A stretch of DNA of 64,000 nt from NCBI GenBank assembly GCA_951406725.2, contig OX597826.1, positions 42,532,001 to 42,596,000 of the forward strand, read 5' to 3'. Numbering within the stretch: the first letter of the stretch is position 1; every line of letters begins with the position of its first letter. The DNA comes from Octopus vulgaris. Taxonomy: Eukaryota. Positions 6,705-60,715 of this stretch are shown piece by piece. The position numbers and the translations under genes are program-made. The notes under the pieces were generated by a model, which searched no databases, had not been told where the DNA came from, and was given only the letters and a program-made list of their open reading frames with translations.

Positions 6705-6896
6705 TGTGACCGTGTGTGTACTGTTGGCGATTTTTTCCACTGTCTTCCCTTCTCTGGATCTTTCCTTCTCCTATGTTTCCGACGAAGAGCTCCGCTCGAA
6801 ACGTTAAACCCTCCTTCTTTCCTGAGCGTCCAATAATACTATATTTGTTCCACGTCCTCGCGTTGTTGTGTTTTATTTGTGCTTTCATGTTTGGAT

Positions 6897-6900
<4 letters not shown>
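6705..6900 (+). mobile_element. Short Penelope-like terminal unit with minimal hammerhead; inverted copy at 7662-7864
   Basis: Both copies have the same boundaries (gtgaccg...ggattaac) and abut (TA)n. Confidence 0.75.
6775..6809 (+). ncRNA. Minimal type-I hammerhead motif (U4C variant)
   Basis: gttt-CCGACGA-a-gagc-tcc-gctc-GAAA-CG-TT-aaac; stems I and II pair. Confidence 0.65.
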
Positions 6901-6981
<81 letters not shown>

Positions 6982-7149
6982 CTGTATGAGTTAGAGGTTA
7001 ATAAACCATCTAAGGAATATTAAATATCCAATATACCACTAGATGTGTACCTACATATTTTTAAACAAGTGTTTATTATTGCATGGCAATATTGCAATTG
7101 AATACTAGCTATGGGTGGGTGTAAATTTCCAATTTACCCAGGATTTATA

Positions 7150-7473
7150 AGGCAAGTAAGAAAATGGAGAGGATATAAAATCGACAAACATCAGCCAGTA
7201 AACATTCCATTATATCTATCTATTAAATGATAACAAACATGTGTTTAAGTGGTACAAGTAAATGGATGAGATCAGCCAATAAATACGTACACAGATACAT
7301 ATAGAGAGATGAAGGAATAATAATAGATGAGTGTACAGATATTTATTGGCTGATCTCATTCACTTACTTGTACTCCTTAAACACATGTTTGTTATCATTT
7401 AATAGATAGATATAATGGAATGTTTACTGGCTCATGTTTATCGATTTTATATCCTCTCCATGTTCTTATTTGC

Positions 7474-7477
<4 letters not shown>
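7150..7477. repeat. Inverted repeat, ~150-bp arms and ~30-bp spacer
   Basis: aaggcaagtaagaaaatggagaggatataaaatcg... is mirrored by ...cgattttatatcctctccatgttcttatttgcctt. Confidence 0.85.
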
Positions 7478-7535
<58 letters not shown>

Positions 7536-7760
7536 GGGTATAAAAGGTTTTGGCATTTAGAAGACTCAAAGAGTGGCAGGTAATGCTAAGTAAGTGCTAA
7601 GGACAGACCATAGTTAAACTTGGTGAGAAGTTTAATGTGGATCTTGCATATATACATATATAGTTAATCCAAACATGAAAGCACAAAAAAACACAACAAC
7701 GCGAGGATGTGGAACAAACATAGTATTATTGGACGCTCAGGAAAGAAGGAAAGAAGGAGG

Positions 7761-7795
7761 GTTTAACGTTTCGAGCGGAGCTCTTCGTCGGAAAC
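7761..7795 (-). ncRNA. Minimal hammerhead motif (copy of 6775-6809)
   Basis: Reverse complement is identical in core and stems. Confidence 0.65.
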
Positions 7796-7941
7796 ATAGA
7801 AGGAAAGATCCAGAGAAGGGAAGACAGAGGGAAAAAAATCGCCAATGGTACACACGCGGTCACAATATATACTAGACAAAAACAGATAACAAAGCCAAGG
7901 CTTTGAGGAGTTTTCGGAATATTTATAAGGAAAGAGATATA

Positions 7942-7989
7942 GTCTTACGGCTGTTTCTGTGATATTATAGATATCCCTTCATCAGAGAC
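7942..7989 (-). ncRNA. Type-I hammerhead motif
   Basis: Minus: gtct-CTGATGA-agggatatctataatatcaca-GAAA-CAGCCG-TA-agac. Confidence 0.75.
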
Positions 7990-8774
7990 GATGTGAGATG
8001 GTTAAATAGAGGTAAATGTTTGAGGAATTATTGTGGAAAAGAAGGAGATGGGGAAAATAGAGGGAAATAAGAGAATGAAAGTAGAAATAGCATATAAGAT
8101 ATTGCAGTTTCAGTTCCATTATTCGAGTAAAGTGGTGTATTGAAGTGCTAAAAAGTTTCCTGTACATGGTATGTAAGTTCCGATAGTAGTTCGAGTTTAG
8201 TCATTTCAAAATATGGAACCGTGGATTCTGTGTTGCCCTTCTCTCTCTTTTTATTATCATTACCCTTTTATCTTTTTTCTTTTTTTTTTCTTTGTTCTTC
8301 ACTCTTTACATTTTTCCTTCTCTCCCCCTCTTTTTTCTCTCTCTTTTTATTATCATTACTCTTTTATCCTTTTCTTTTTTTCTCTCTTTCTTCTCATTTC
8401 CTTTCCTCTCTTCATTTTGACCTATCTCCTCATTCTAATCATACACATCTCCTTCGTCCCCCATCTATCCACAAATACTACCAATACATTCCCAAATTTT
8501 CTTTCACACCACAAAACCCCTTCGGATGGGCAACATAGAATCTACGGCTCCATATTTTGAAAGGACTAAACACGAACTACTATCGGAATTTACATACCAT
8601 GTGCAGGAAACTTTTTACCCCTTCTACACACCACTTTACTCGAATAATGTAACTGAAAATACAATATTTTATGTTATTTCTACTTTCATTCTCTCATTTC
8701 CCTCTATTTCCCTTATCTCCTCCTTTTCCATAATAATTCCTCAAACATTTACCTCTATTTAACCATCTCACATC

Positions 8775-8822
8775 GTCTCTGATGAAGGGCTATCCATAAT
8801 ATCTCAGAAACAGCTGTAAGAC
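8775..8822 (+). ncRNA. Type-I hammerhead motif with palindromic stem III
   Basis: gtct-CTGATGA-agggctatccataatatctca-GAAA-CAGCTG-TA-agac. Confidence 0.8.
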
Positions 8823-8883
8823 TATATCTTTTTCCTTATGTCCTGAAAACTCCTCACAGCCTTGGCTTTATTATCTATTTTTG

Positions 8884-8945
<62 letters not shown>

Positions 8946-17018: not shown

Positions 17019-17299
17019 TGTTTTGTATGTATGTATGTATGTATGTATGTATATATGTATGTATATATGTATGTATGTATGTATTGATATATATGTCTGT
17101 GTGTGTGTATATAAATACTAGCTGGTGTACCCGGTAGTTACCGGGAGTAAATATGTTCTATTGAAACGCCTTATTAGTCTGATATAAGAAAGCAATTTCG
17201 TTATAACTGCCACAAAAGGTGTAGTCACGAAAACGTACAAAAACTGTCAGCTGGAGGAGGGAAAGGTGTAGGACGTTGGCAGGAAAGATTTTCGTAGGT

Positions 17300-17790
17300 T
17301 GGTGAAAAAGATTGTCGGAGGTTGGTGAGAGAGGTTGTCAGAGGTTGGCGAGAAAGGTTGTCGGAGGTTGGTAAGAGAGGTCGTCGGAAGTTGTCTAGAG
17401 AGGTTGTCGGAGGTTGTCGAGAGAGGTTTTCGGAGGTTGGTGAGAAAGGTTGTCGAAGGTTGGCGAGAAAGGTTGTCGGAGGTTGGTAAGAGAGGTCGTC
17501 GGAAGTTGTCTAGAGAGGTTGTCGGAGGTTGTCGAGAGAGGTTTTCGGAGGTTGGCGAGAAAGGTTGTCGAAGGTTGGCGAGAAAGGTTGTCGGAGGTTG
17601 GTAAGAGAGGTCGTCGGAAGTTGTCTAGAGAGGTTGTCGGAGGTTGTCGAGAGAGGTTTTCGGAGGTTGGCGAGAAAGGTTGTCGAAGGTTGGCGAGAAA
17701 GGTTGTCGAAGGTTGGCGAAAAAGGTTGTCGGAGGTTGGTAAGAGAGGTCGTCGGAAGTTGTCTAGAGAGGTTGTCGAAGGTTGGCGAGT
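17300..17790. repeat. 23-bp minisatellite (gttgtcggaggttggcgagaaag) with higher-order periodicity
   Basis: About 21 variant units; the variants recur in a fixed order. Confidence 0.9.
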
Positions 17791-18490
17791 TAGTTATTTG
17801 GAAATATTGAAAAAAATGTGTATTAATGCAATGCGTAAATTAATTACAGCAATATGTATATATTGAACTAGAATAGACGTTCTTCAAGATGTTGTATGAA
17901 GTGTAAATAAGCAATTATGATTTGTAAAATAATTATAACTGATACAGGGTGTCGCGGGTCAGTGTGGTGTGGAAGTTTGGTTTCATTTTTTAATAATTTT
18001 AAGCATTCAAAGTATGAGCTCATTGTACTGGGACAAACTTATGAATTACGTTGTGGAAGGTAAAATTTATGTACTATCCATCGTAAAATTTGAACTTGAA
18101 AAATGCAGAATTATCGGTGTTATGGGCATTCATAGTGTAATGAAATTTAATTGAAAACCCTGCATGCATTGGCAGAAATTAGTTATTTGGAGATGTTGAA
18201 AAAATTTCTATTAATGCAATGTGTAAATTAATTACAGCAATATGTATATAACTGTTTAGATATTGAATTAGCTTAGACGAAGAATAATTGATTTATTTTG
18301 TAAATATGAAACAATGAATCTGAGACTTACTTGAGATCGCCGTTGTCGCATTAGAACAGCTTCTGAAGTAGAAGCACCCATTCCTACTCGTCGTGGCATT
18401 TTAAAGTTGAACTTTATGAAGGCTAATTTATTAAAGGTAATATATGAATGTAGTATATATGTATAGAAATATGTATATATGTATATGAAT

Positions 18491-23992: not shown

Positions 23993-24111
23993 TGTATGTG
24001 TCTGTGTTTGTCCCTTACAAAGAATAAGTCCTGGGGTCGATTTGCTCGACTAAAAGCGGTGCTCCAGCATGGCCGCAGTCAAATGACTGAAACAAATAAA
24101 AGAATAAATAT

Positions 24112-24575
24112 AGAGTGGTTGTATACTGTCAACATAACGTGACAGTCCCGTAAGGGAATTACACCACCGATATTTAGCCCTAGGAAGCATCGACGCTTCC
24201 TGTCAGCATTGACACATTTCCTGTGTCCTTATATATTTACGAAGGGGAGACAAACACCCCCAACAGATAGGCCTGCATCTAGATACATGCATGTTTCTGG
24301 GTCTTGTCCATCATCAGTCTAGAGTAGCAAGGCCTGCAAGCTGAAAATATTTGTCTAGACTTCGTATATTTTCAGTGAAGTTTATTCACTGATCACCACT
24401 AATCTAGATGCAGGCCTATCTGTTGGGTGTGTTTGTCTCCCCTTCGTAAATATATAAGGACACAGGAAATGTGTCAAGGCCGACAGGAAGCGTCGATGCT
24501 TCCTAGGGCTAAATAGCGGTGGTATAATTCCCTTACGGGACTGTCACGTTAAGTTGACAGTATACAACCACTCTA
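24112..24575. mobile_element. Penelope-like inverted insertion (arms 24112-24284 and 24402-24575)
   Basis: ~170-bp arms with high identity; a hammerhead lies at the inner end of the left arm. Confidence 0.85.
24278..24323 (-). ncRNA. Canonical type-I hammerhead ribozyme
   Basis: tctaga-CTGATGA-tgg acaagac cca-GAAA-CATGCATG-TA^tctaga: all core positions are intact and there is a GUA cleavage triplet. Confidence 0.85.
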
Positions 24576-24951
24576 TCGCTCCACCACCGCATATATCTCT
24601 ATGAGATATTTAGAAATTTAATATTTCTGAGAATATATATATAAATATATGTGTGTGTGTGCGTGTGTGTTTCTTGTTTTTGTTGCTGTATACATTCGCT
24701 AGCTTTCTTACAAAAAGGTCTAATGCTCTTAGCTTAGACTTTTGGGGGAGCAACCAAATCGAACTGTCTCAAGTGTAACTACCCAAAACTGTAAGGACTT
24801 CTGGTACACTTCTGGTATAATTGACTGGGGAAAGAAGGCCACGAATGAGCCTTCTTTTTTGCCTGTTCTTCTAATTGTTGTTTCTCCTGTCCGCCTTTGG
24901 ATCGTCTATCTGTCCGAATGTTTTATTTCTTCTATTGCGTTTTTGTTCCAT

Positions 24952-25568: not shown

Positions 25569-25971
25569 TTCAACATTTGGTACTGGTAGGGATGTCTGGT
25601 TAAGTAACTCCACGTAGTTTTGGGTTCAGTCTCACTCTGCGGCACCTTAGGTAAATGTTTTTCTCTGATATCCCTGGACTGACAAATGCTTTGTAAGCGA
25701 ATTTGGTTAGAAACTATGAAAGTCTGTTTTGTATACATGTTTGTATGTATGTGCGTGAATCTCTATGTCTGTGTATGTGTTGGTATGTTTACGTCCTCGT
25801 AACTTAGTGGCAAAAGACAGAAAAGCACCAGGCTTTAAAAAATAAGTGTAGGGGTCGATCTGTTCGACAAAACTCTTCAAAGCGGTACTCCAACATAGCC
25901 GCAGTTATATGACACAAACAAGTAAAAGATACAAAATAAAAGAATGTGTGTGTGTGTATGTTCCAAAAATT

Positions 25972-26130
25972 TAACTAGAAACACAAGAAACGGATAATTC
26001 ACACATAGAATGTTGCTAATTCCTTGTTATCGTCCAAGCTATGATCTTTTGGATGATAACTAACAAGGGATTAGCAACGCCCTATGTGTGAATTTTCAGT
26101 TTGCTATGTTTCTATTAAAATTTTTGGAAT
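25972..26130. repeat. Imperfect inverted repeat
   Basis: ttccaaaaatttaactagaaacac...cacacatagaatgttgctaat is mirrored by attagcaacgccctatgtgtg...tttctattaaaatttttggaa. Confidence 0.7.
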
Positions 26131-26527
26131 ATATTATTTAATGTAACGCTACACACATTCTTATTCTTTGTTCTTTTATATATATACAGAAAGGGCTGCT
26201 AAGCCTGAACGAGTTGAGTTGGTGAACGCGGAGGAACAAGCTCTGACAGAAGACAGACAAGAATGCGTTTTATCCCTGCGGCTGATCAGAGAGAAAAAAA
26301 GAAATTCAAGTTAAGAAAAGAAAGATAGCCGATGGTCACGTGCAAGCAACGATAGAGAAAAGGCGGAAGAGTGAGAGAGAGAGAGGTACAGACAGAGAAC
26401 GGCTAAGGGGAGAGGAAAAGAATTATAGAAAGGATGAGAGAGAAAAACGAAAGGGGGAGAAGGGGAGATATAAAGAATTAGAGAAAGGAGGAGAAAGGAA
26501 ATGAAAGAGGAGAAACAGAAAGAGATA

Positions 26528-30591: not shown

Positions 30592-30942
30592 TGTATGTAT
30601 GTATGTATGTATGTATGTATGTATGTATGTATGTATGTATGTATGTATGTATGCATGCATGTGTGCGTATGCATGTATGCATATATGTAATATTGTGCTT
30701 GTGTCTGTGATTGTCCTCCCACCATCGCTTGACAACCGATGTTGGTGTGTTTATGTCTCCCGTAACTTAGCGGTTTGTCAAAAGAGACCGATAGAATATG
30801 TACTAGGCTTACAAAGAATAAGTGTTGGAGTCGATTTGTTCGACTAAAACTCCTGAAGGTGGTGCTCCAGCATAGCCGCAGTCAAATGACTGAAACAAAT
30901 AAAAGAATAAAAGAATATATCTATATATATATATATATATAT

Positions 30943-31528
30943 AGGAAACTGTGTTGCTGAAAATGCACTTAAATTTCAAAACCTCGTAAATGTTTAAAAT
31001 ACATTTATTTACATATATACCAAACTAGTTTCAACAATATTTTTTGTTTAGCAATGGTAAAGGTGTAAAATTAGAAAAACATCGTTATAAGTTTCAATAT
31101 TGACAAATCAAAATTAAATTAAAATGTTTCAATGTTGATAAATTATCATGTTCAAAACAGAAGGTGTAAGTTTGAAATTAAAACTGTATATTAATTTGAT
31201 AGAATGTACAAGGTTCGTTAATTTCAGTGGTGGTCGACAAGTCATACTGGAAAAAAAACTGTGAGAATTGAAATAGTAAAAAAGTGGAAATTACGGTTTC
31301 TCAGATCTTCTGTTTTGAACATGATAATTTATCAACATTGAAACATTTTAATTTAATTTTGATTTGTCAACATTGAAACTTATAACGATGTTTTTCTAAT
31401 TTTACACTTTTACTATTGCTAAACAAAAAATATTGTTGAAACTAGTTTGGTATATATGTAAATAAATGTATTTTAAACATTTACGAGTATTTTGAAATTT
31501 AAGTGCATTTTCAGCAACACATTTTCCT
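30943..31528. mobile_element. Penelope-like inverted insertion (arms ~30943-31165 and ~31305-31528) with decayed hammerheads
   Basis: ~220-bp inverted arms; tacca-TTGCTAA-..aacaa/ttgtt-GAAA-CTAG-TT-tggta. Confidence 0.75.
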
Positions 31529-32017
31529 ATATATTTTTTACTTCGTGGAAACACCACTCCCTCTTTTGATATATATATATATAAGAATATAAAAAAAACG
31601 GGACAAGAACGCAAAACATCCAGACTTTTAGATGATACAAAAAGAGACAACAAAACATCCATACAAATGATACAAAAAAAGGGGATAAGAAAAACCAAGG
31701 ACGGGTCATTCGGAGTTTTCTTTTGTCAGTCGAGTTCTAGATTATATTGCAGTTTCGGCTGGTTATACTCGAGACTGCTCCAATCTGGCCAGCCCCAAGG
31801 AAAATCTAAGCTAAGAGCACTTGGAAGAAAGCAGCGAATGTATACGAAAGCAAGGACAAAAAAAAACGGAGAAATGGTACGCAAATACAAATGCAAACAA
31901 CAGGACATTAACAACAGGTATCTTTCGACTAAGGACGAATTAAATTGAGCTGGCGTGAGTGGAAGTGACATAAGAGACATAAGAGATGATATGCATGGCA
32001 AATAATATAGATGCTGC

Positions 32018-32744: not shown

Positions 32745-33168
32745 TGGCGGAGATGTAAACGGAACCCTTCCCCCACCTTTAATTTTTTTTTTTTTACGGA
32801 ATCCCACGTCTAGGCTATGGCGATAACGATTCTGAAGAAAAATTTTCAAAAATCGCAACTTCAAAATTTCAGTCCCCACCCTTCCCTCATTTCACTTTTC
32901 ACTTTTTCCGGAAATTTTGTTTTTGCGAAATACGTACAAAAATACGGAGATTATGATTCTGAAAAAAAGTTATTCAGAATCATTATCTCCGTATTTTTGT
33001 ACGTATTTCGCAAAAACGAACAAAAAAAAATCCGAAAAACGTGAAAAATGAAGAAATGGGAGTGGGGGATTGAAATTTTGAAGTTGCGATTTTTGAAATT
33101 TTTTTTTCAGAATCGGAATCTCCATAGCCTAAAACGTGGGATTTCGTAAAAAAAAATTTTAATGAGGA
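32745..33168. mobile_element. Foldback MITE-like element
   Basis: ttacggaatcccacgtctaggctatgg / ccatagcctaaaacgtgggatttcgtaa; central gattctgaa..ttcagaatc. Confidence 0.7.
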
Positions 33169-40838: not shown

Positions 40839-41104
40839 AATAATAGTTAAATAAATAAACAAATAGAGTTAAACAATATTTATTTAAAAAATAAATAAAA
40901 TAATAATTTTTCTTATAGAAAAAACTCTATTCACTAAATTTGAAACTTAAAACATTAGGATTATCTCCTACAACACATTTATTATGTTAAATATTTAATA
41001 TTTAAGGTAAAAAAAAAAAGAGTAAATAGATAGAAATATGTATTTATCTGTGAAGATATAATTTAGCTTTAAAAACATTAATAAACTTACTGGTAATAGA
41101 AGAA

Positions 41105-42282
41105 TTGGTGACGCGCATCCTCGATGATAGTGATGCTGTTGACATCGTTTTATTGGACTTTGCCAAAACTTTTGACTCGGTAAACCACCGCCTATTACTT
41201 CAAGCATATAGTTTCCATCCGGATATTGTACGATGGGTTGCTGCCTTCCTCTCAGATCGCTCCTTCCAAGTCCAAGTTAATGGTTCGCGGTCCGACGTCT
41301 CCAGTGCGAGCAGTGGCGTGCCTCAAGGTTCAGTGCTTGGGCCTTTATTGTTCTTAGTCTTCATAAATGACTTGCCCGACGACCTCACGCAACACACCCT
41401 TCTATTTGCCGACGATGTCAAATTGGTCGCTCCTCGCGGTGATATAGAGGATTTTCGTCGATGCCTCCACCAAATTTGGAGGTGGTCTAACGAATGGGAC
41501 CTGTGTCTGAACGTGTCAAAGTGCTGTCATCTGCCTGTTGGCTCTCCTCCTGCAACTCAACTTGATTTCGAGCCGGGTCGTCTGCTGCTGGAGAGGACCG
41601 ATCAGGTAAAGGACCTGGGTATCTTGGTGGATTCCTCCATTTCGCCTTCGGCCCAGTGCGTCCATGCTGCCAACAAAGCACGCGGAATTCTGTTCTTGAT
41701 TCGACGGTCATTCGGAATGCTCACAGAAGCTATATTCCTACCGCTCTATGTCACGCTGGTGAGACCCATATTGGAGTACGGGATTCAAGCCTCTTCTCCT
41801 TATCTCCTCAAAGACATACAGCATCTCGAAAGAGTCCAGAAGCTGGCTACCCGCACGGTTCATGGTCTCAAGAATTTGTCTTTTGAAGAAAGGCTGAAGA
41901 CGCTCGACCTTTATTCTCTAGAAAAACGCCGCCGCCGTGGTGATCTCATTCTCGCTCACAACATCATAAGCGGAAAGTGTAACCCTCGAAAGAGCTGTTC
42001 TTCACTCCTGCTCCAGAGCGTCGGCTGCGGGGTCATTCCGAAAAGCTCTATCTGCGACGATTTCATCTCAATCGAAGGAGAGGGGCTTTCTCCGTCCGGG
42101 TTGCGGATCTGTGGAACCAGACGAGATGGTGAAGATGCCGACGACCGCTTTGTTCAAAGTCTCCCTTGACCACAAGTGGCCTGAACTCTTTACATGAACA
42201 CCACCCTGTACATAACTCCATGTCCCCCTACATGGCCTTGCTTTTTGCTTTTTGAGCCAAAAAATTAACTAAGTAACTAACA
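41105..42282 (+). pseudogene. 5'-truncated CR1-group LINE (reverse transcriptase and C-terminus)
   Basis: LDFAKTFDSVNH, SGVPQGSVLGPLLFLVFINDL, LFADDVKL, KDLGILVD, LERVQKLATR, LEKRRRRGDLI; frameshift near 41985; (TAAC)-like tail. Confidence 0.92.
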
Positions 42283-46400: not shown

Positions 46401-47654
46401 GTAGGAGAATAAAGTGGATGATGAATTTTTTCCCAACCAAGCTCTTCGATCTTCTGTGATGTGATCTTTGCAGTGTGGGGTCGCGCATTGTCCTGATGAA
46501 ACATCACTCGATTCAGTAAAGCGGGTCTTTTTTCTTCAAAGCTTGGTTCAAACGCTCTAATTTCTGACAGTAGACTTGAGCATTGATTGTTGCATTAGGA
46601 AGTAACAATTCAAAGTGAATTACTCCTTTTCAATCCCACCAGATAGAGAGAAGAACCTTTTTCCCATAAAGTTTCCTTCTCGGTTGTGGTTGAGCTTTTT
46701 CCCTTTTACCAAGCCACTATTTACGACGTTTAACATTTCGATAGAAGATCCATTTTTCGTCATCAGTCACAAGTCTATCCAAAATGGTTGAAATGAGTTC
46801 GCGAGAAAGGAGAGAAGAGCAGATGTCAACTCGGGATTTGTAGTTGCTTTCGGACAATTCATGAGGCACCCATTTTACAAATTTAGAAACCTTTCCAAGT
46901 TGTTGAAGATGACGTTGTATGGTTTGAACTAAGCTTTATTGCCAATTCTTCAACTGATAATGCAGAATTTTCTTCAAGTAATGCCTCAAGGAGCTTCACA
47001 TCAAACTCAACTGGACGTCCTATTCGATCTTCATCTTCAAGGCTGAAATCTCCACTTCTGAATTGTGAAAACCATCTTCTGCAAGTTCTTTCATTTAAAC
47101 ATTCTTTCCCATAATCTGAGTGTATGTTCAGAGTCGCTTCGGTTGCAGAGTTTCCTTTTTTGTACCCATAAAGCATTATGTGCCTCAAATGCTCTTTGGT
47201 TACTTCCATGTTAGAAGGGGTTTTAATGAAAGAAATTTTAATTCTATTATTCTGTAAAATAATATTTAATTAGTTTAAAAGTACACTAATGCATAAAAAT
47301 AATTTTTAATTCCGTTAGACATTCTAAAATACTATTAAATTTCATTCAGTTTTAAAAAAAGGTAAAATTGGACCGAACTTATGGGATGACCTGATATAAA
47401 GACTGTACTTGTCTGCAGAGACAAGAATTTTCGAAGCAGAACAACTATTCTCCTCGACCTCCGGTCTGTCTAGGGGACATGATTTTCTCATAGCCATTCA
47501 AGAGAGTCGGAAAAGCTTGTAGCCTGTCCAGCTTGGTCTCTGTAGCAACCATCACATCTATATCTTGTGACTTGAGGTTGTCGAGAAAGCAAGATTGCTT
47601 CCACTTCGAGCTCAGGCCACGTACATTCAAACAACAAAGTTTAAGTGAAGCCAT
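43485..47654 (-). pseudogene. LINE ORF2: AP endonuclease and reverse transcriptase, frameshifted and interrupted by a mariner
   Basis: CLNVRGL..DVMVATETKL (APE); PGLD; NFRPITLLNTELKILA; GRSIHDNLHLIR; LDQSKAFDRVDH; YADD at 44346-44357. Confidence 0.92.
46122..47394 (-). mobile_element. Complete mariner element (1273 bp) with degenerate transposase
   Basis: TIRs tcaggtcatcccataa..tccgaa / gaccgaacttatgggatgacctga; TA duplicated; ORF from 47209 MEVTKEHLRHIMLY..WVPHEL..TDDEKW..HQDNARPH..PSDYHLF. Removing it restores LINE peptide STVFI|DPEG. Confidence 0.95.
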
Positions 47655-57729: not shown

Positions 57730-59703
57730 CTATTGCCTCCGAAAATAATGCCTCAAGATTGCCCCACGAATCTGGATATTCCTTATAAAACGTACTTCAT
57801 TAATGGCTTCCCTAAATCCATCCAAAATTTTATCAGTTTCAACGCGGGTGGAATGGAACTTTTTCAAAGATGCATAGGTAGGAGGCTTTTGATCATCGCT
57901 GTACTTCTTAGCATGTTTGTGCTGCTTTGTACCACCATCACCCCCACCACTATCATTCGTTTTTGATGTTGAATGAGTGATGGAGGTACTGTTGTGAGTG
58001 TTAATACTGTCTTCGTTGCTAATTTTGCTACAACTGCTGTTGCTATTGCTATAATCAATGCTGTTTCTGTCATTGGTATCGTTACTGATGTTGTTGTTGT
58101 TGTTGTTGAGGGCAGTGGTGCTATTTTTACTGCAATTGGTGTTATTAATATCTTTGTTCTTAGAGTCTGGATTTGGATTTTTACTTTCATGGCAGTTGTT
58201 GCTATTTCCAAAGCTATTAGTGTTGTTGTTACTGTTGCTATTTTCATTGATTTTCTTATTATCATTACCTTTCTTGTTGCTGCTGTTGTCATTACCCTTC
58301 TTGCTGCTGCTGCTGTCATTACCCTCCTTGCCGCTGCTGTTATCATTACCCTTCTTGCCGCTGTTATTGTTATTATTCTTTTTGCTGCTGTCGTCATTAC
58401 CCTTCTTGTTGCTGCTGTTGTCATTACCCTTGTTGTTGCTGCTGTTGTCATTACCCTTGTTGTTGCTGCTGTTGTCATTACCCTTCTTGTTGCTGCTGTT
58501 GTCATTACCCTTCTTGTTGCTGCTGTTGTCATTACCCTTGTTGTTGCTGCTGTTGTCATTACCCTTGTTGTTGCTGCTGTTGTCATTACCCTTCTTGTTG
58601 CTGCTGTTATCATTACTCTTCTTGCCGCTGCTGTTGTCATTACCCTTCTTGTTGCTGCTGTTATCATTACCCTCCTTGCCGCTGCTGTTGTCATTACCCT
58701 TCTTGTTGCTGCTGTTGTCATTACCCTTCTTGTTGCTGCTGTTGTCATTACCCTTCTTGTTGCTGCTGTTGTCATTACCCTTCTTGTTGCTGCTGTTGTC
58801 ATTACTCTTCTTGTTGCTGTCGTTGTCATTACTCTTCTTGCCGCTGCTGTTGTCATTACCCTTCTTGCTGCTGTCGTTGTCATTACTCTTCTTGCTGCTG
58901 CTGTTATCATTATCCTTCTTGCTGCTGTTGTTGTCATTACCCTTCTTGCTGCTGTTATTGTTATTATTCTTTTTGCTGCTGCTGTTATCATTATCCGTCT
59001 TGCTGCTGTCGTTGTCATTACTCTTCTTGCTGCTGCTGTTGTTATTACCCTTCTTGCTGCTGTTATTGTTATTATTCTTTTTGCTGCTGTTGTTGTCATT
59101 ACCCTTCTTGCTGCTGTTATTGTTATTATTCTTTTTGCTGCTGCTGTTATCATTATCCGTCTTGCTGCTGTCGTTGTCATTACTCTTCTTGCTGCTGCTG
59201 TTGTTATTACCCTTCTTGCTGCTGCTGTTGTTATTATTCTTTTTGCTGTTGCTGCTGCTACCATTCTTACTGCTACAGCTGGTGTTGTTGTTACTGTTCT
59301 TACTGCTGGCACTGTTATTCTTACTGTTCTTACTGCTGGTGCTGTTATTATTGTTACTGTTCTTACTGCTGCTGTTGTTATTGTTACTGTTCTTACTGCT
59401 GGTGCTGTTGTTATTGTTACTGTTCTTACTGCTGTTGTTGTTATTGTTACTGTTCTTACTTCTGCTGTTATTATTGTCACTGTTCTTACTGCTGCTGTTG
59501 TTATTATTACTGTTCTTACTGCTGGTGCTGTTGTGGTTATTATTATTATTATTATTATGATTATTATTAGTGGCAGTACTATTAACTCCAACTGTTACAG
59601 TTGTTGCTACTGATTTACTGATTGCTGTTGTTGCACTTGATATCATCTTTTTTGCAGCTGCTGCACTCAGTGTCGTAGCTCGTTTTTTGTTATTTTTTGT
59701 CAT
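57730..59703 (-). CDS. Possible Asn/Ser/Lys-rich repeat protein (657 aa) built on a 27/30-bp minisatellite; coding status uncertain
   Basis: Open frame of (SSNKKGNDN)n plus ~60 aa of non-repetitive C-terminus. Other frames are also open across the repeat, so ORF length alone is weak evidence. Confidence 0.4.
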   Translation of the reverse strand: MTKNNKKRATTLSAAAAKKMISSATTAISKSVATTVTVGVNSTATNNNHNNNNNNNHNSTSSKNSNNNNSSSKNSDNNNSRSKNSNNNNNSSKNSNNNNSTSSKNSNNNNSSSKNSNNNNSTSSKNSKNNSASSKNSNNNTSCSSKNGSSSNSKKNNNNSSSKKGNNNSSSKKSNDNDSSKTDNDNSSSKKNNNNNSSKKGNDNNSSKKNNNNNSSKKGNNNSSSKKSNDNDSSKTDNDNSSSKKNNNNNSSKKGNDNNSSKKDNDNSSSKKSNDNDSSKKGNDNSSGKKSNDNDSNKKSNDNSSNKKGNDNSSNKKGNDNSSNKKGNDNSSNKKGNDNSSGKEGNDNSSNKKGNDNSSGKKSNDNSSNKKGNDNSSNNKGNDNSSNNKGNDNSSNKKGNDNSSNKKGNDNSSNNKGNDNSSNNKGNDNSSNKKGNDDSSKKNNNNNSGKKGNDNSSGKEGNDSSSSKKGNDNSSNKKGNDNKKINENSNSNNNTNSFGNSNNCHESKNPNPDSKNKDINNTNCSKNSTTALNNNNNNISNDTNDRNSIDYSNSNSSCSKISNEDSINTHNSTSITHSTSKTNDSGGGDGGTKQHKHAKKYSDDQKPPTYASLKKFHSTRVETDKILDGFREAINEVRFIRNIQIRGAILRHYFRRQ

Positions 59704-60715
59704 TATTCTTGCTGTTGTTGTTGCTAATATTTATTGTGTTGTTGCTACAGTTGTCGTCATGAACAAATACTGATGCAGAGCACTCTTTGTTGTTGTCAAT
59801 GAAAACCCTGTTGCTTTCGTAGCACCAACATAGCTGCAAAATTAAACAAAACTCCAATTTTAAAAAAATTACTCTATTGTAAACATATACAATAACAACA
59901 AAAAGCCTCTATGAGAAAACTTAACCTGCTAGAATTAGCAGCCAAATCTCAAACCCTACTCCTTCATCATCAAAAACAAAAGATGCTTAAGATACTTCTA
60001 GATACATTATGTCTGAATAAAAGATATGACAATTATGGATTCTCATGGATTCTCTCCATCTTCTAGCTCTTGGATGTCTTTAATGGGGTTAACCTTGATG
60101 AAGGCATTCGTGCCAGGTCTCCCCCCCTTCTTCCCAATTGATATCCCTTGAAAACTGGTCATAGGTATTGTTCTTCCTCAGTACCCACATCACTACCATC
60201 TTATCATCATGCCGGCCACTTTCACCCACCCTTATATAAGGCAGGGTATCTGTGTATCTTCATTATAGCAAGACACCTATTCTTGTCCCTCTGTCATACT
60301 ATCACTCTCCTAACACCTGACATAAAGCCAACTTTCCCCCTTCTCAAAAACTAACCCAGTCACCTACCTATAAAGTTGAAGGGACTTTTTCCATTTCTTG
60401 TTCTTTTTTTTTTTTCCTCTCTTGCAAGTTATTTGGCAACTTCACAAGTGTCAGCAGCATGAATAAAGCATCCAGTACCCTCTGAGAAACGGCTGACATT
60501 AGGAAGGACATCTAAACTCAGAAACTATGCCATAGCTAATGGTGGAGTATGGATGCAGTCCTGCGACTCGTCAGATCCTATCAATCCATCCAACACGAGC
60601 CAGCATCGAAAATAGATGTTGTATGATGATGATGATGATGATGATGAAATATAAAGGAAATACTTCATTTTGCATGAAAAAGCGAATTTTTTTGTATTTC
60701 CTCAGTGGTAAGCAA

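Follow-up and report, generated by a model that had tools for sequence, protein, structure and literature searches.

A head-to-head pair of 5'-truncated copies of a likely Penelope-like repeat in Octopus vulgaris, with an inverted arm that starts at a predicted hammerhead cut site

Within the 64,000 nucleotides of Octopus vulgaris DNA analysed here (the window), a repeat-rich stretch of eukaryotic DNA with long microsatellites, two copies of one repeat lie head to head. The left copy (24110-24401, 292 nt, sense on the minus strand) carries no tail at its 3' end, includes a whole hammerhead motif and reaches 117-118 nt upstream of the predicted cut, the surviving upstream part having stops in all three frames. 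The right, inverted arm (24402-24576, sense on the plus strand) is devoid of the ribozyme core. Aligned with each other, the arms 24110-24284 and 24402-24576 are 175 nt each and 97% complementary, with 6 differences and a spacing of 117 nt. These limits place the start of the right arm either at the base corresponding to H17 of the ribozyme (24402) or, should the A at 24402 have been matched by chance, precisely at the first base past the cut (24403). Since both copies point outwards, the junction between them (24399-24403, 0-2 nt ambiguous) unites two 5' ends, both truncated. A preliminary description of this DNA had reported an inverted copy of about 170 bp on the plus strand, beginning at 24402-24403 without the ribozyme core and with homology starting within 1 nt of the cut, and all of this was confirmed. 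Its account of the arm's extent holds for 24402-24576 and falls short beyond, as the right arm continues into a 3' extension of the family (the tail) from 24577 to at least 24606 on the plus strand, which is found on this arm only and may run further, towards about 24630.

Both flanks of the insertion are AT-rich, and a 9-nt repeat at 24104-24112 and 24641-24649 has too little complexity to be read as a target-site duplication. The left flank is the AT-rich 3' end of a dispersed short, SINE-like repeat (24014-24109, plus strand), which is the likely insertion target. Searches with blastn revealed 11 other copies of this repeat in the window (12 in all), and its 25-nt core motif gave 9 matches at up to 3 mismatches against 0 in 100 shuffles. 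We take it to resemble a cephalopod tRNA-derived SINE.

The motif on the minus strand of the left copy (24278-24323) is a type I hammerhead with a palindromic stem III, predicted to cut between 24284 and 24283. Its 5' arm of stem I (24323-24318) pairs with the 3' arm (24283-24278) over 6 bp and is followed by the core segment C3-A9 (CUGAUGA, 24317-24311), stem II (24310-24298, 3 bp in the locus copy), GAAA (24297-24294), the palindromic stem III and its loop (24293-24286), and U16.1 (24285) with H17 (an A, 24284), which form the UA step before the predicted cut. Descriptor analysis found everything expected of a type I core (CUGANGA, GAAA, UH and three helices) at 24323-24278, and the strict version, defined by a 6-bp stem I and a 3-bp stem II, matched once in the window against 0 in 300 block-shuffled windows. 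The minus-strand hammerhead claimed at 24323 to 24278 is thus real as a motif. Calling it "fully canonical" is an overstatement: no Rfam hammerhead model reached its gathering score over the whole window, and adopting the hammerhead fold is predicted to cost the 292-nt left copy 4.2 kcal/mol relative to its minimum-energy fold. Rfam searches of 24050-24680 at E up to 10 returned 7 weak matches, none of them a hammerhead and all rejected. Matches of a loose hammerhead descriptor elsewhere (+25239, +10451 and -47457) were set aside as likely due to chance. The palindromic stem III is predicted to form an intermolecular duplex of -15.3 kcal/mol, so that pairing as a dimer would be possible; stem III pairing between two molecules has been described for Penelope hammerheads, according to the available excerpt of PMC4209133.

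The family to which both copies belong was surveyed in assembled contigs of four public runs (4 of the 24 runs listed), aligned to 24100-24402 at 80% likeness. Runs X1, X2 and X7 are presumed to be DNA and X13 RNA, and the runs contain at most 0.46 of the words, so that they may represent a related population or species. The alignments comprised 3089 (X1), 2292 (X2), 414 (X13) and 2807 (X7) contigs. Their summed depth, which adds overlapping contigs, dips where the locus copy differs from the family and is not a copy number, peaks in the 3' half and drops roughly hundredfold or more by about 24350, towards the 5' end. The commonest loose end falls just before 24110 (41, 51, 8 and 43 contigs in X1, X2, X13 and X7, respectively), and its X2 consensus, at least 30 letters long, matches 24577-24606 at 29 of 30 letters; the right arm therefore retains a 3' extension that is absent from the left copy. 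Upstream of 24398, the family is represented only by a low-agreement loose end (11 contigs of run X7, agreement 0.63). Thirteen joints were listed, comprising 8 inversions, 4 go-back joints and 1 internal skip. The ends of the inversion joints are scattered from 24151 to 24343, their head-to-head sense having been checked in the piece table for 3 of the 8, and one go-back joint leads from 24324 to 24112 with tail letters between, which corresponds to a partial tandem.

This abundant repeat, present at the locus as a 5'-truncated head-to-head pair, probably represents a Penelope-like retrotransposon's 3' end module (pLTR), and we consider the Penelope-like assignment to be highly probable. The element type named in the preliminary description is supported by the hammerhead, the 5' truncation, the head-to-head pair and the one-sided tail. 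Available parts of the literature describe endonuclease-positive Penelope-like elements as having a pLTR with a hammerhead and a tail of 30-40 bp (PMC8557442; PMC4209133), and Penelope-like insertions as heavily truncated at the 5' end, where a further 5'-truncated copy lies in inverted orientation, and as having a tail that is often one-sided (PMC8557442). The octopus repeat resembles Penelope/Poseidon, Neptune, Nematis and Hydra in its type I hammerhead with a palindromic stem III near the 3' end (PMC8557442; PMC4209133, both in part), the short palindromic stem III lying in the terminal module and the core being covered by family contigs. Targets of such elements are AT-rich or microsatellite DNA, and the target-site duplication is often indistinct. 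Further resemblances to published Penelope-like elements include the likely AT-rich target, the tail of at least 30 nt on the right arm and none on the left, and frequent 5' truncation with partners that are inverted, as in the head-to-head pair and 8 of the 13 listed joints, or in partial tandem, as seen in a family contig among the 4 go-back joints. The anatomy of the insertion is that of the published Penelope-like architecture and hence of an already known kind. In contrast to these elements, which have a single ORF encoding a telomerase-like reverse transcriptase and a GIY-YIG endonuclease, the locus has no reverse transcriptase or GIY-YIG ORF, and Pfam searches of 12 window ORFs revealed no Penelope-type domain. 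Its stem I of 6 bp with a long predicted helix differs from the 4-5 bp of the minimal Schistosoma motifs, and its tail may exceed 40 nt as compared with the 30-40 bp reported for Penelope-like elements, as far as the available text of these sources goes. No true relative of the element was found in the collection scans: a 16-base motif gave 51 loci in the metagenome scan, 0 of 51 being related beyond the motif (longest alignment, 26 nt), and a 23-base motif gave 0 and 0 matches in the genome and viral collections. The same Pfam searches of 12 ORFs identified an RVT_1 reverse transcriptase remnant (41054-42166, plus strand, E 2e-19) and a Mos1-type transposase HTH remnant (46886-47269, minus strand, E 2.4e-21), neither of which is linked to the hammerhead repeat.

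Family contigs carry C at H17 in 98.3-100% of the depth in the four runs, which makes GUC the family triplet, and their base at 24307 adds a fourth pair to stem II, of which the locus copy has 3 bp. The GUA site noted earlier is thus present in the locus copy but, because the family has C at H17, it is a trait of this copy or of a rare subfamily. Judged by these two differences, the locus ribozyme appears slightly decayed relative to the family.

The coincidence between the start of the right arm and the predicted cut invites the reading that this arm is a run-off cDNA of hammerhead-cleaved RNA, joined to a cDNA made from uncut RNA, with cleavage supplying a minority of the templates. We regard this as possible though doubtful. 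In its favour are the start within 1 nt of the cut, a family ribozyme that looks better than the locus copy (GUC and a 4-bp stem II) with its predicted capacity for dimer pairing, and the precedent of R2, in which the ribozyme cut site correlates with types of genomic 5' junction (PMC3774820, available in part). Weighing against it, a homologous A at 24402 would mean that the arm contains H17, a base for which cut RNA offers no template, and metazoan Penelope hammerheads cut poorly in vitro according to the accessible part of PMC4209133. By chance, one of the two inner ends would lie no more than 1 nt from the cut in about 2-4% of pairs; this is a single-pair figure, taking no account of the many pairs scanned, and the window has six compact inverted pairs, the locus at 24110-24576 included.

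The preliminary description had proposed that 5' truncation points across the family should peak at the cut. Depth at 24284 relative to 24267, two positions compared since the locus differs from the family at both, was 1.06, 0.84 and 0.88 in the three DNA-labelled runs, for which a simple overlap model gives 0, 0.26 and 0.20 of copies lost, ordinary truncation included. In the same runs, ten two-bin steps in depth were calculated, and the one across the cut (0.81, 0.68 and 0.79) was the mildest. The largest loss of depth occurs 3' of the cut, at about 24243 to 24267, where the enzyme would be within a predicted long helix, and this loss is confounded by the locus copy's own mismatches. Run X13 yielded a ratio across the cut of 0.60 and a model value of 0.40-0.55, with 8 contigs at 24267, 4 at 24284 and 1 at 24307; this ratio was given no weight, because few contigs cover the cut and contigs cannot show RNA ends. 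The contig-alignment output contained no sites where many molecules end, and position 24283 is absent from the 24 loose ends shown, of 471, whose ranking rule is unstated. In the two other hammerhead families of the window, 4 of 4 copies read through the cut.

Joint ends give a slightly different picture. Twenty ends were counted, 16 from the inversions and 4 from the go-back joints, the skip from 24305 to 24365 being excluded as an internal deletion. Two of the 20 lie within 1 nt of the cut, namely a clean inversion joint exactly at 24283, free of ambiguous or extra letters (one contig of run X13, depth 9.6), and a go-back joint at 24282 (run X7), with undefined letters between. They represent 2 of the 8 joint ends that reach 24276 or beyond. 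This excess, which speaks for cut templates, has an uncorrected p of 0.02-0.04 for a 3-nt target and uniform ends, but is not significant (p 0.16-0.24) when alignments clipped at the rare base 24284 are allowed for. Around the outer 5' edge of the hammerhead lie 3 of the 20 joint ends (24317, 24324 and 24330), at least as many as at the cut.

A dominant peak of 5' ends at the cut is excluded by these data, and a minor excess of a few per cent is possible. The truncation-point test therefore returned no depth step and scattered breakpoints on the one hand, and a weak excess of 2 in 20 joint ends on the other, and with the former the earlier conclusion that self-cleaved RNA was the template for the right arm's cDNA, which would be evidence of cutting in vivo, is not established. 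As the data stand, the locus amounts to an ordinary insertion in which a suggestive coincidence occurs, and one copy does not show in vivo cleavage. If cleaved RNA did template the right arm, the locus and the 24283 joint of X13 would be genomic fossils of a metazoan Penelope hammerhead cutting in vivo, and cut RNA would be a real template in a measurable minority of events, with two cDNAs primed at once. Were 5' ends in the genome truly overrepresented at the cut, they would offer a simple read-out of cleavage in vivo, and the family is well suited to counting such ends, being abundant, with many inversion joints and 174 nt from the cut to the inner 3' end. We found no literature in which Penelope 5' ends were mapped against the hammerhead cut site, within an incomplete coverage.

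A particular feature of the pair is a base common to both arms at 24267/24419 that is absent from 99.9-100% of the family depth, its residual depth amounting to about 3, 1 and 0 copies in X1, X2 and X7, respectively. The A at 24402 likewise matches the rare H17 of the left copy and may do so by chance. Both pairs of positions (24267/24419 and 24284/24402) are located within 18 nt of the junction, and all 6 differences between the arms lie further out. Such sharing hints at copying at the DNA level, in which the right arm, or its inner part, would derive from DNA by fold-back of the first cDNA on a 1-2 nt match or by hairpin conversion. With fold-back, the start of the arm would reflect re-annealing and not an RNA end. 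The near-private base, possibly the rare H17 A, the distribution of shared bases and differences, and the low-agreement upstream loose end, which loosely resembles the junction letters, are all consistent with this alternative, which we nonetheless consider unlikely. The tail is present on the right arm only, so that pure fold-back would require the left tail to have been lost subsequently, conversion after insertion would be uninformative on the original start, and one or two shared bases would also fit a rare source copy. A rare source copy, fold-back copying of the first cDNA or a later conversion of the arms could each explain the shared base; two independent cDNAs would account for it only through the first or the last of these.

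The left copy has a strong predicted fold (-104.3 kcal/mol, z -5.9), with 0 of 200 shuffles equally stable. A long helix extending stem I is predicted at 24238-24366 on the minus strand, in which 24366-24327 would pair with 24276-24238. Family variants at 24255 and 24263 would convert G-U pairs of this helix into A-U and G-C, and the variant at 24254 (about 3%) would disrupt a pair; as read by hand, the family bases at 24338 and 24267 would, in a shifted register, permit perfect pairing over 7 bp. The 5' end of the left copy (24395-24400) is predicted to pair over 6 bp with 24116-24121, just inside its tail-less 3' end, with pair probabilities of 0.77-0.90. This end pairing, together with the 11 X7 contigs loose behind 24398, may point to a genuine 5' boundary belonging to a short non-autonomous form. 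A TATA-like heptamer lies at 24229-24235 on the minus strand, about 50 nt downstream of the cut, with a matching place in the right arm; the family has indels in this region, so that the heptamer may lack conservation.

Size and fold of the 292-nt copy are as in metazoan non-LTR retrozymes (PMC7229834, available in part), which are non-coding, of about 300 nt, with a type I hammerhead and strong self-pairing (PMC7229834; bioRxiv 10.64898/2026.07.22.740005, in excerpt). The left copy might accordingly stand for a circular retrozyme of 292 nt, copied as one permuted unit length, and the right arm might be copied from its linear cut form, a view to which the predicted folding (z -5.9 linear and -6.6 circular) and the 6-bp pairing of the ends would lend themselves. 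It is highly improbable. The go-back joint from 24401 to 24110 that a 292-nt unit would leave is absent among the joints listed, although contigs can drop rare forms, the tail follows on the family 3' end, and the unit is covered very unevenly. In contrast to non-LTR retrozymes, the contigs contain no tandem unit-length repeats or circular joint, and coverage decays like that of a truncated retroelement. A circular or tandem 292-nt retrozyme was thus largely refuted by the 3' end that leads into the tail and by the lack of a unit-length go-back joint among those listed.

The explanation we favour, at slightly better than even chances, is that the head-to-head pair arose from two joined cDNAs, the right one of which was ended by an ordinary premature stop. 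An ordinary stop is likelier because ends of family copies are found at many positions and the site is passed by most copies that get that far. Two nicked strands of the AT-rich target, the AT-rich end of the SINE, would each prime a cDNA, and the two cDNAs would grow towards each other. The left cDNA would begin at an inner start site, omitting the tail, and pass through an uncut hammerhead, while the right one would begin at an outer start site, include the tail and halt where the long stem I helix has its inner end, a position that coincides with the cut site. The two would then be joined at their unfinished ends. This scheme draws on the Poseidon element of Anolis carolinensis (PAc), for which the available text of PMC11167929 describes a purified Penelope-like protein that cleaves both strands of AT-rich DNA, extends them, and begins reverse transcription at two internal sites bounding the tail. 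The octopus repeat is similar to PAc in that its tail is delimited by two 3' end points lying downstream of the hammerhead, and priming on both strands as in PAc would explain the head-to-head pair. The same excerpt reports that hammerhead mutants left insertion unchanged, that uncut RNA was the dominant substrate, and that no RNA-seq reads started or ended at the hammerhead cut of the element studied. The PAc ORF starts inside the hammerhead, whereas the ATG in stem II of the locus copy is followed by a stop after 10 codons.

Other systems provide partial parallels. R2 elements with HDV-like ribozymes offer a precedent for a cut that defines the template's 5' end and can be traced in genomic junctions (PMC3774820, in part). 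In R2, the position of the cut is associated with the types of junction in full-length copies, whereas in the octopus family the cut represents no more than a minor end point, and the two differ in both ribozyme and element class. The role of the hammerhead in endonuclease-positive Penelope-like elements is termed unclear in the accessible section of PMC8557442, and the available portion of PMC13282606 makes no mention of hammerheads.

Several other repeats of the window were recorded along the way. Two copies of a second hammerhead family, whose core is the variant CCGACGA, lie at 6705-6902 (plus strand) and 7661-7864 (minus strand), are 90% alike and share the same start base, about 74 nt upstream of the core, and the same end base before a TA run; the family looks like a short element with two defined ends. 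A third hammerhead family forms a head-to-head pair at 7865-8241 (minus) and 8525-8895 (plus), its arms extending about 295 nt past the cut sites and its left 3' end abutting the 5' end of the second-family copy at 7864. Four further inverted pairs, compact, separated by short spacers and lacking a recognisable hammerhead, occur at 7143-7482, 25957-26133, 30937-31534 and 32787-33156; that at 30937-31534 lies in the AT-rich end of a SINE and has an apparent one-sided, tail-like extension of about 35 nt. Finally, long minisatellites were identified at 17152-17887 (23-nt units) and at 57730-59730 (27-nt units), the latter with long open frames on both strands.
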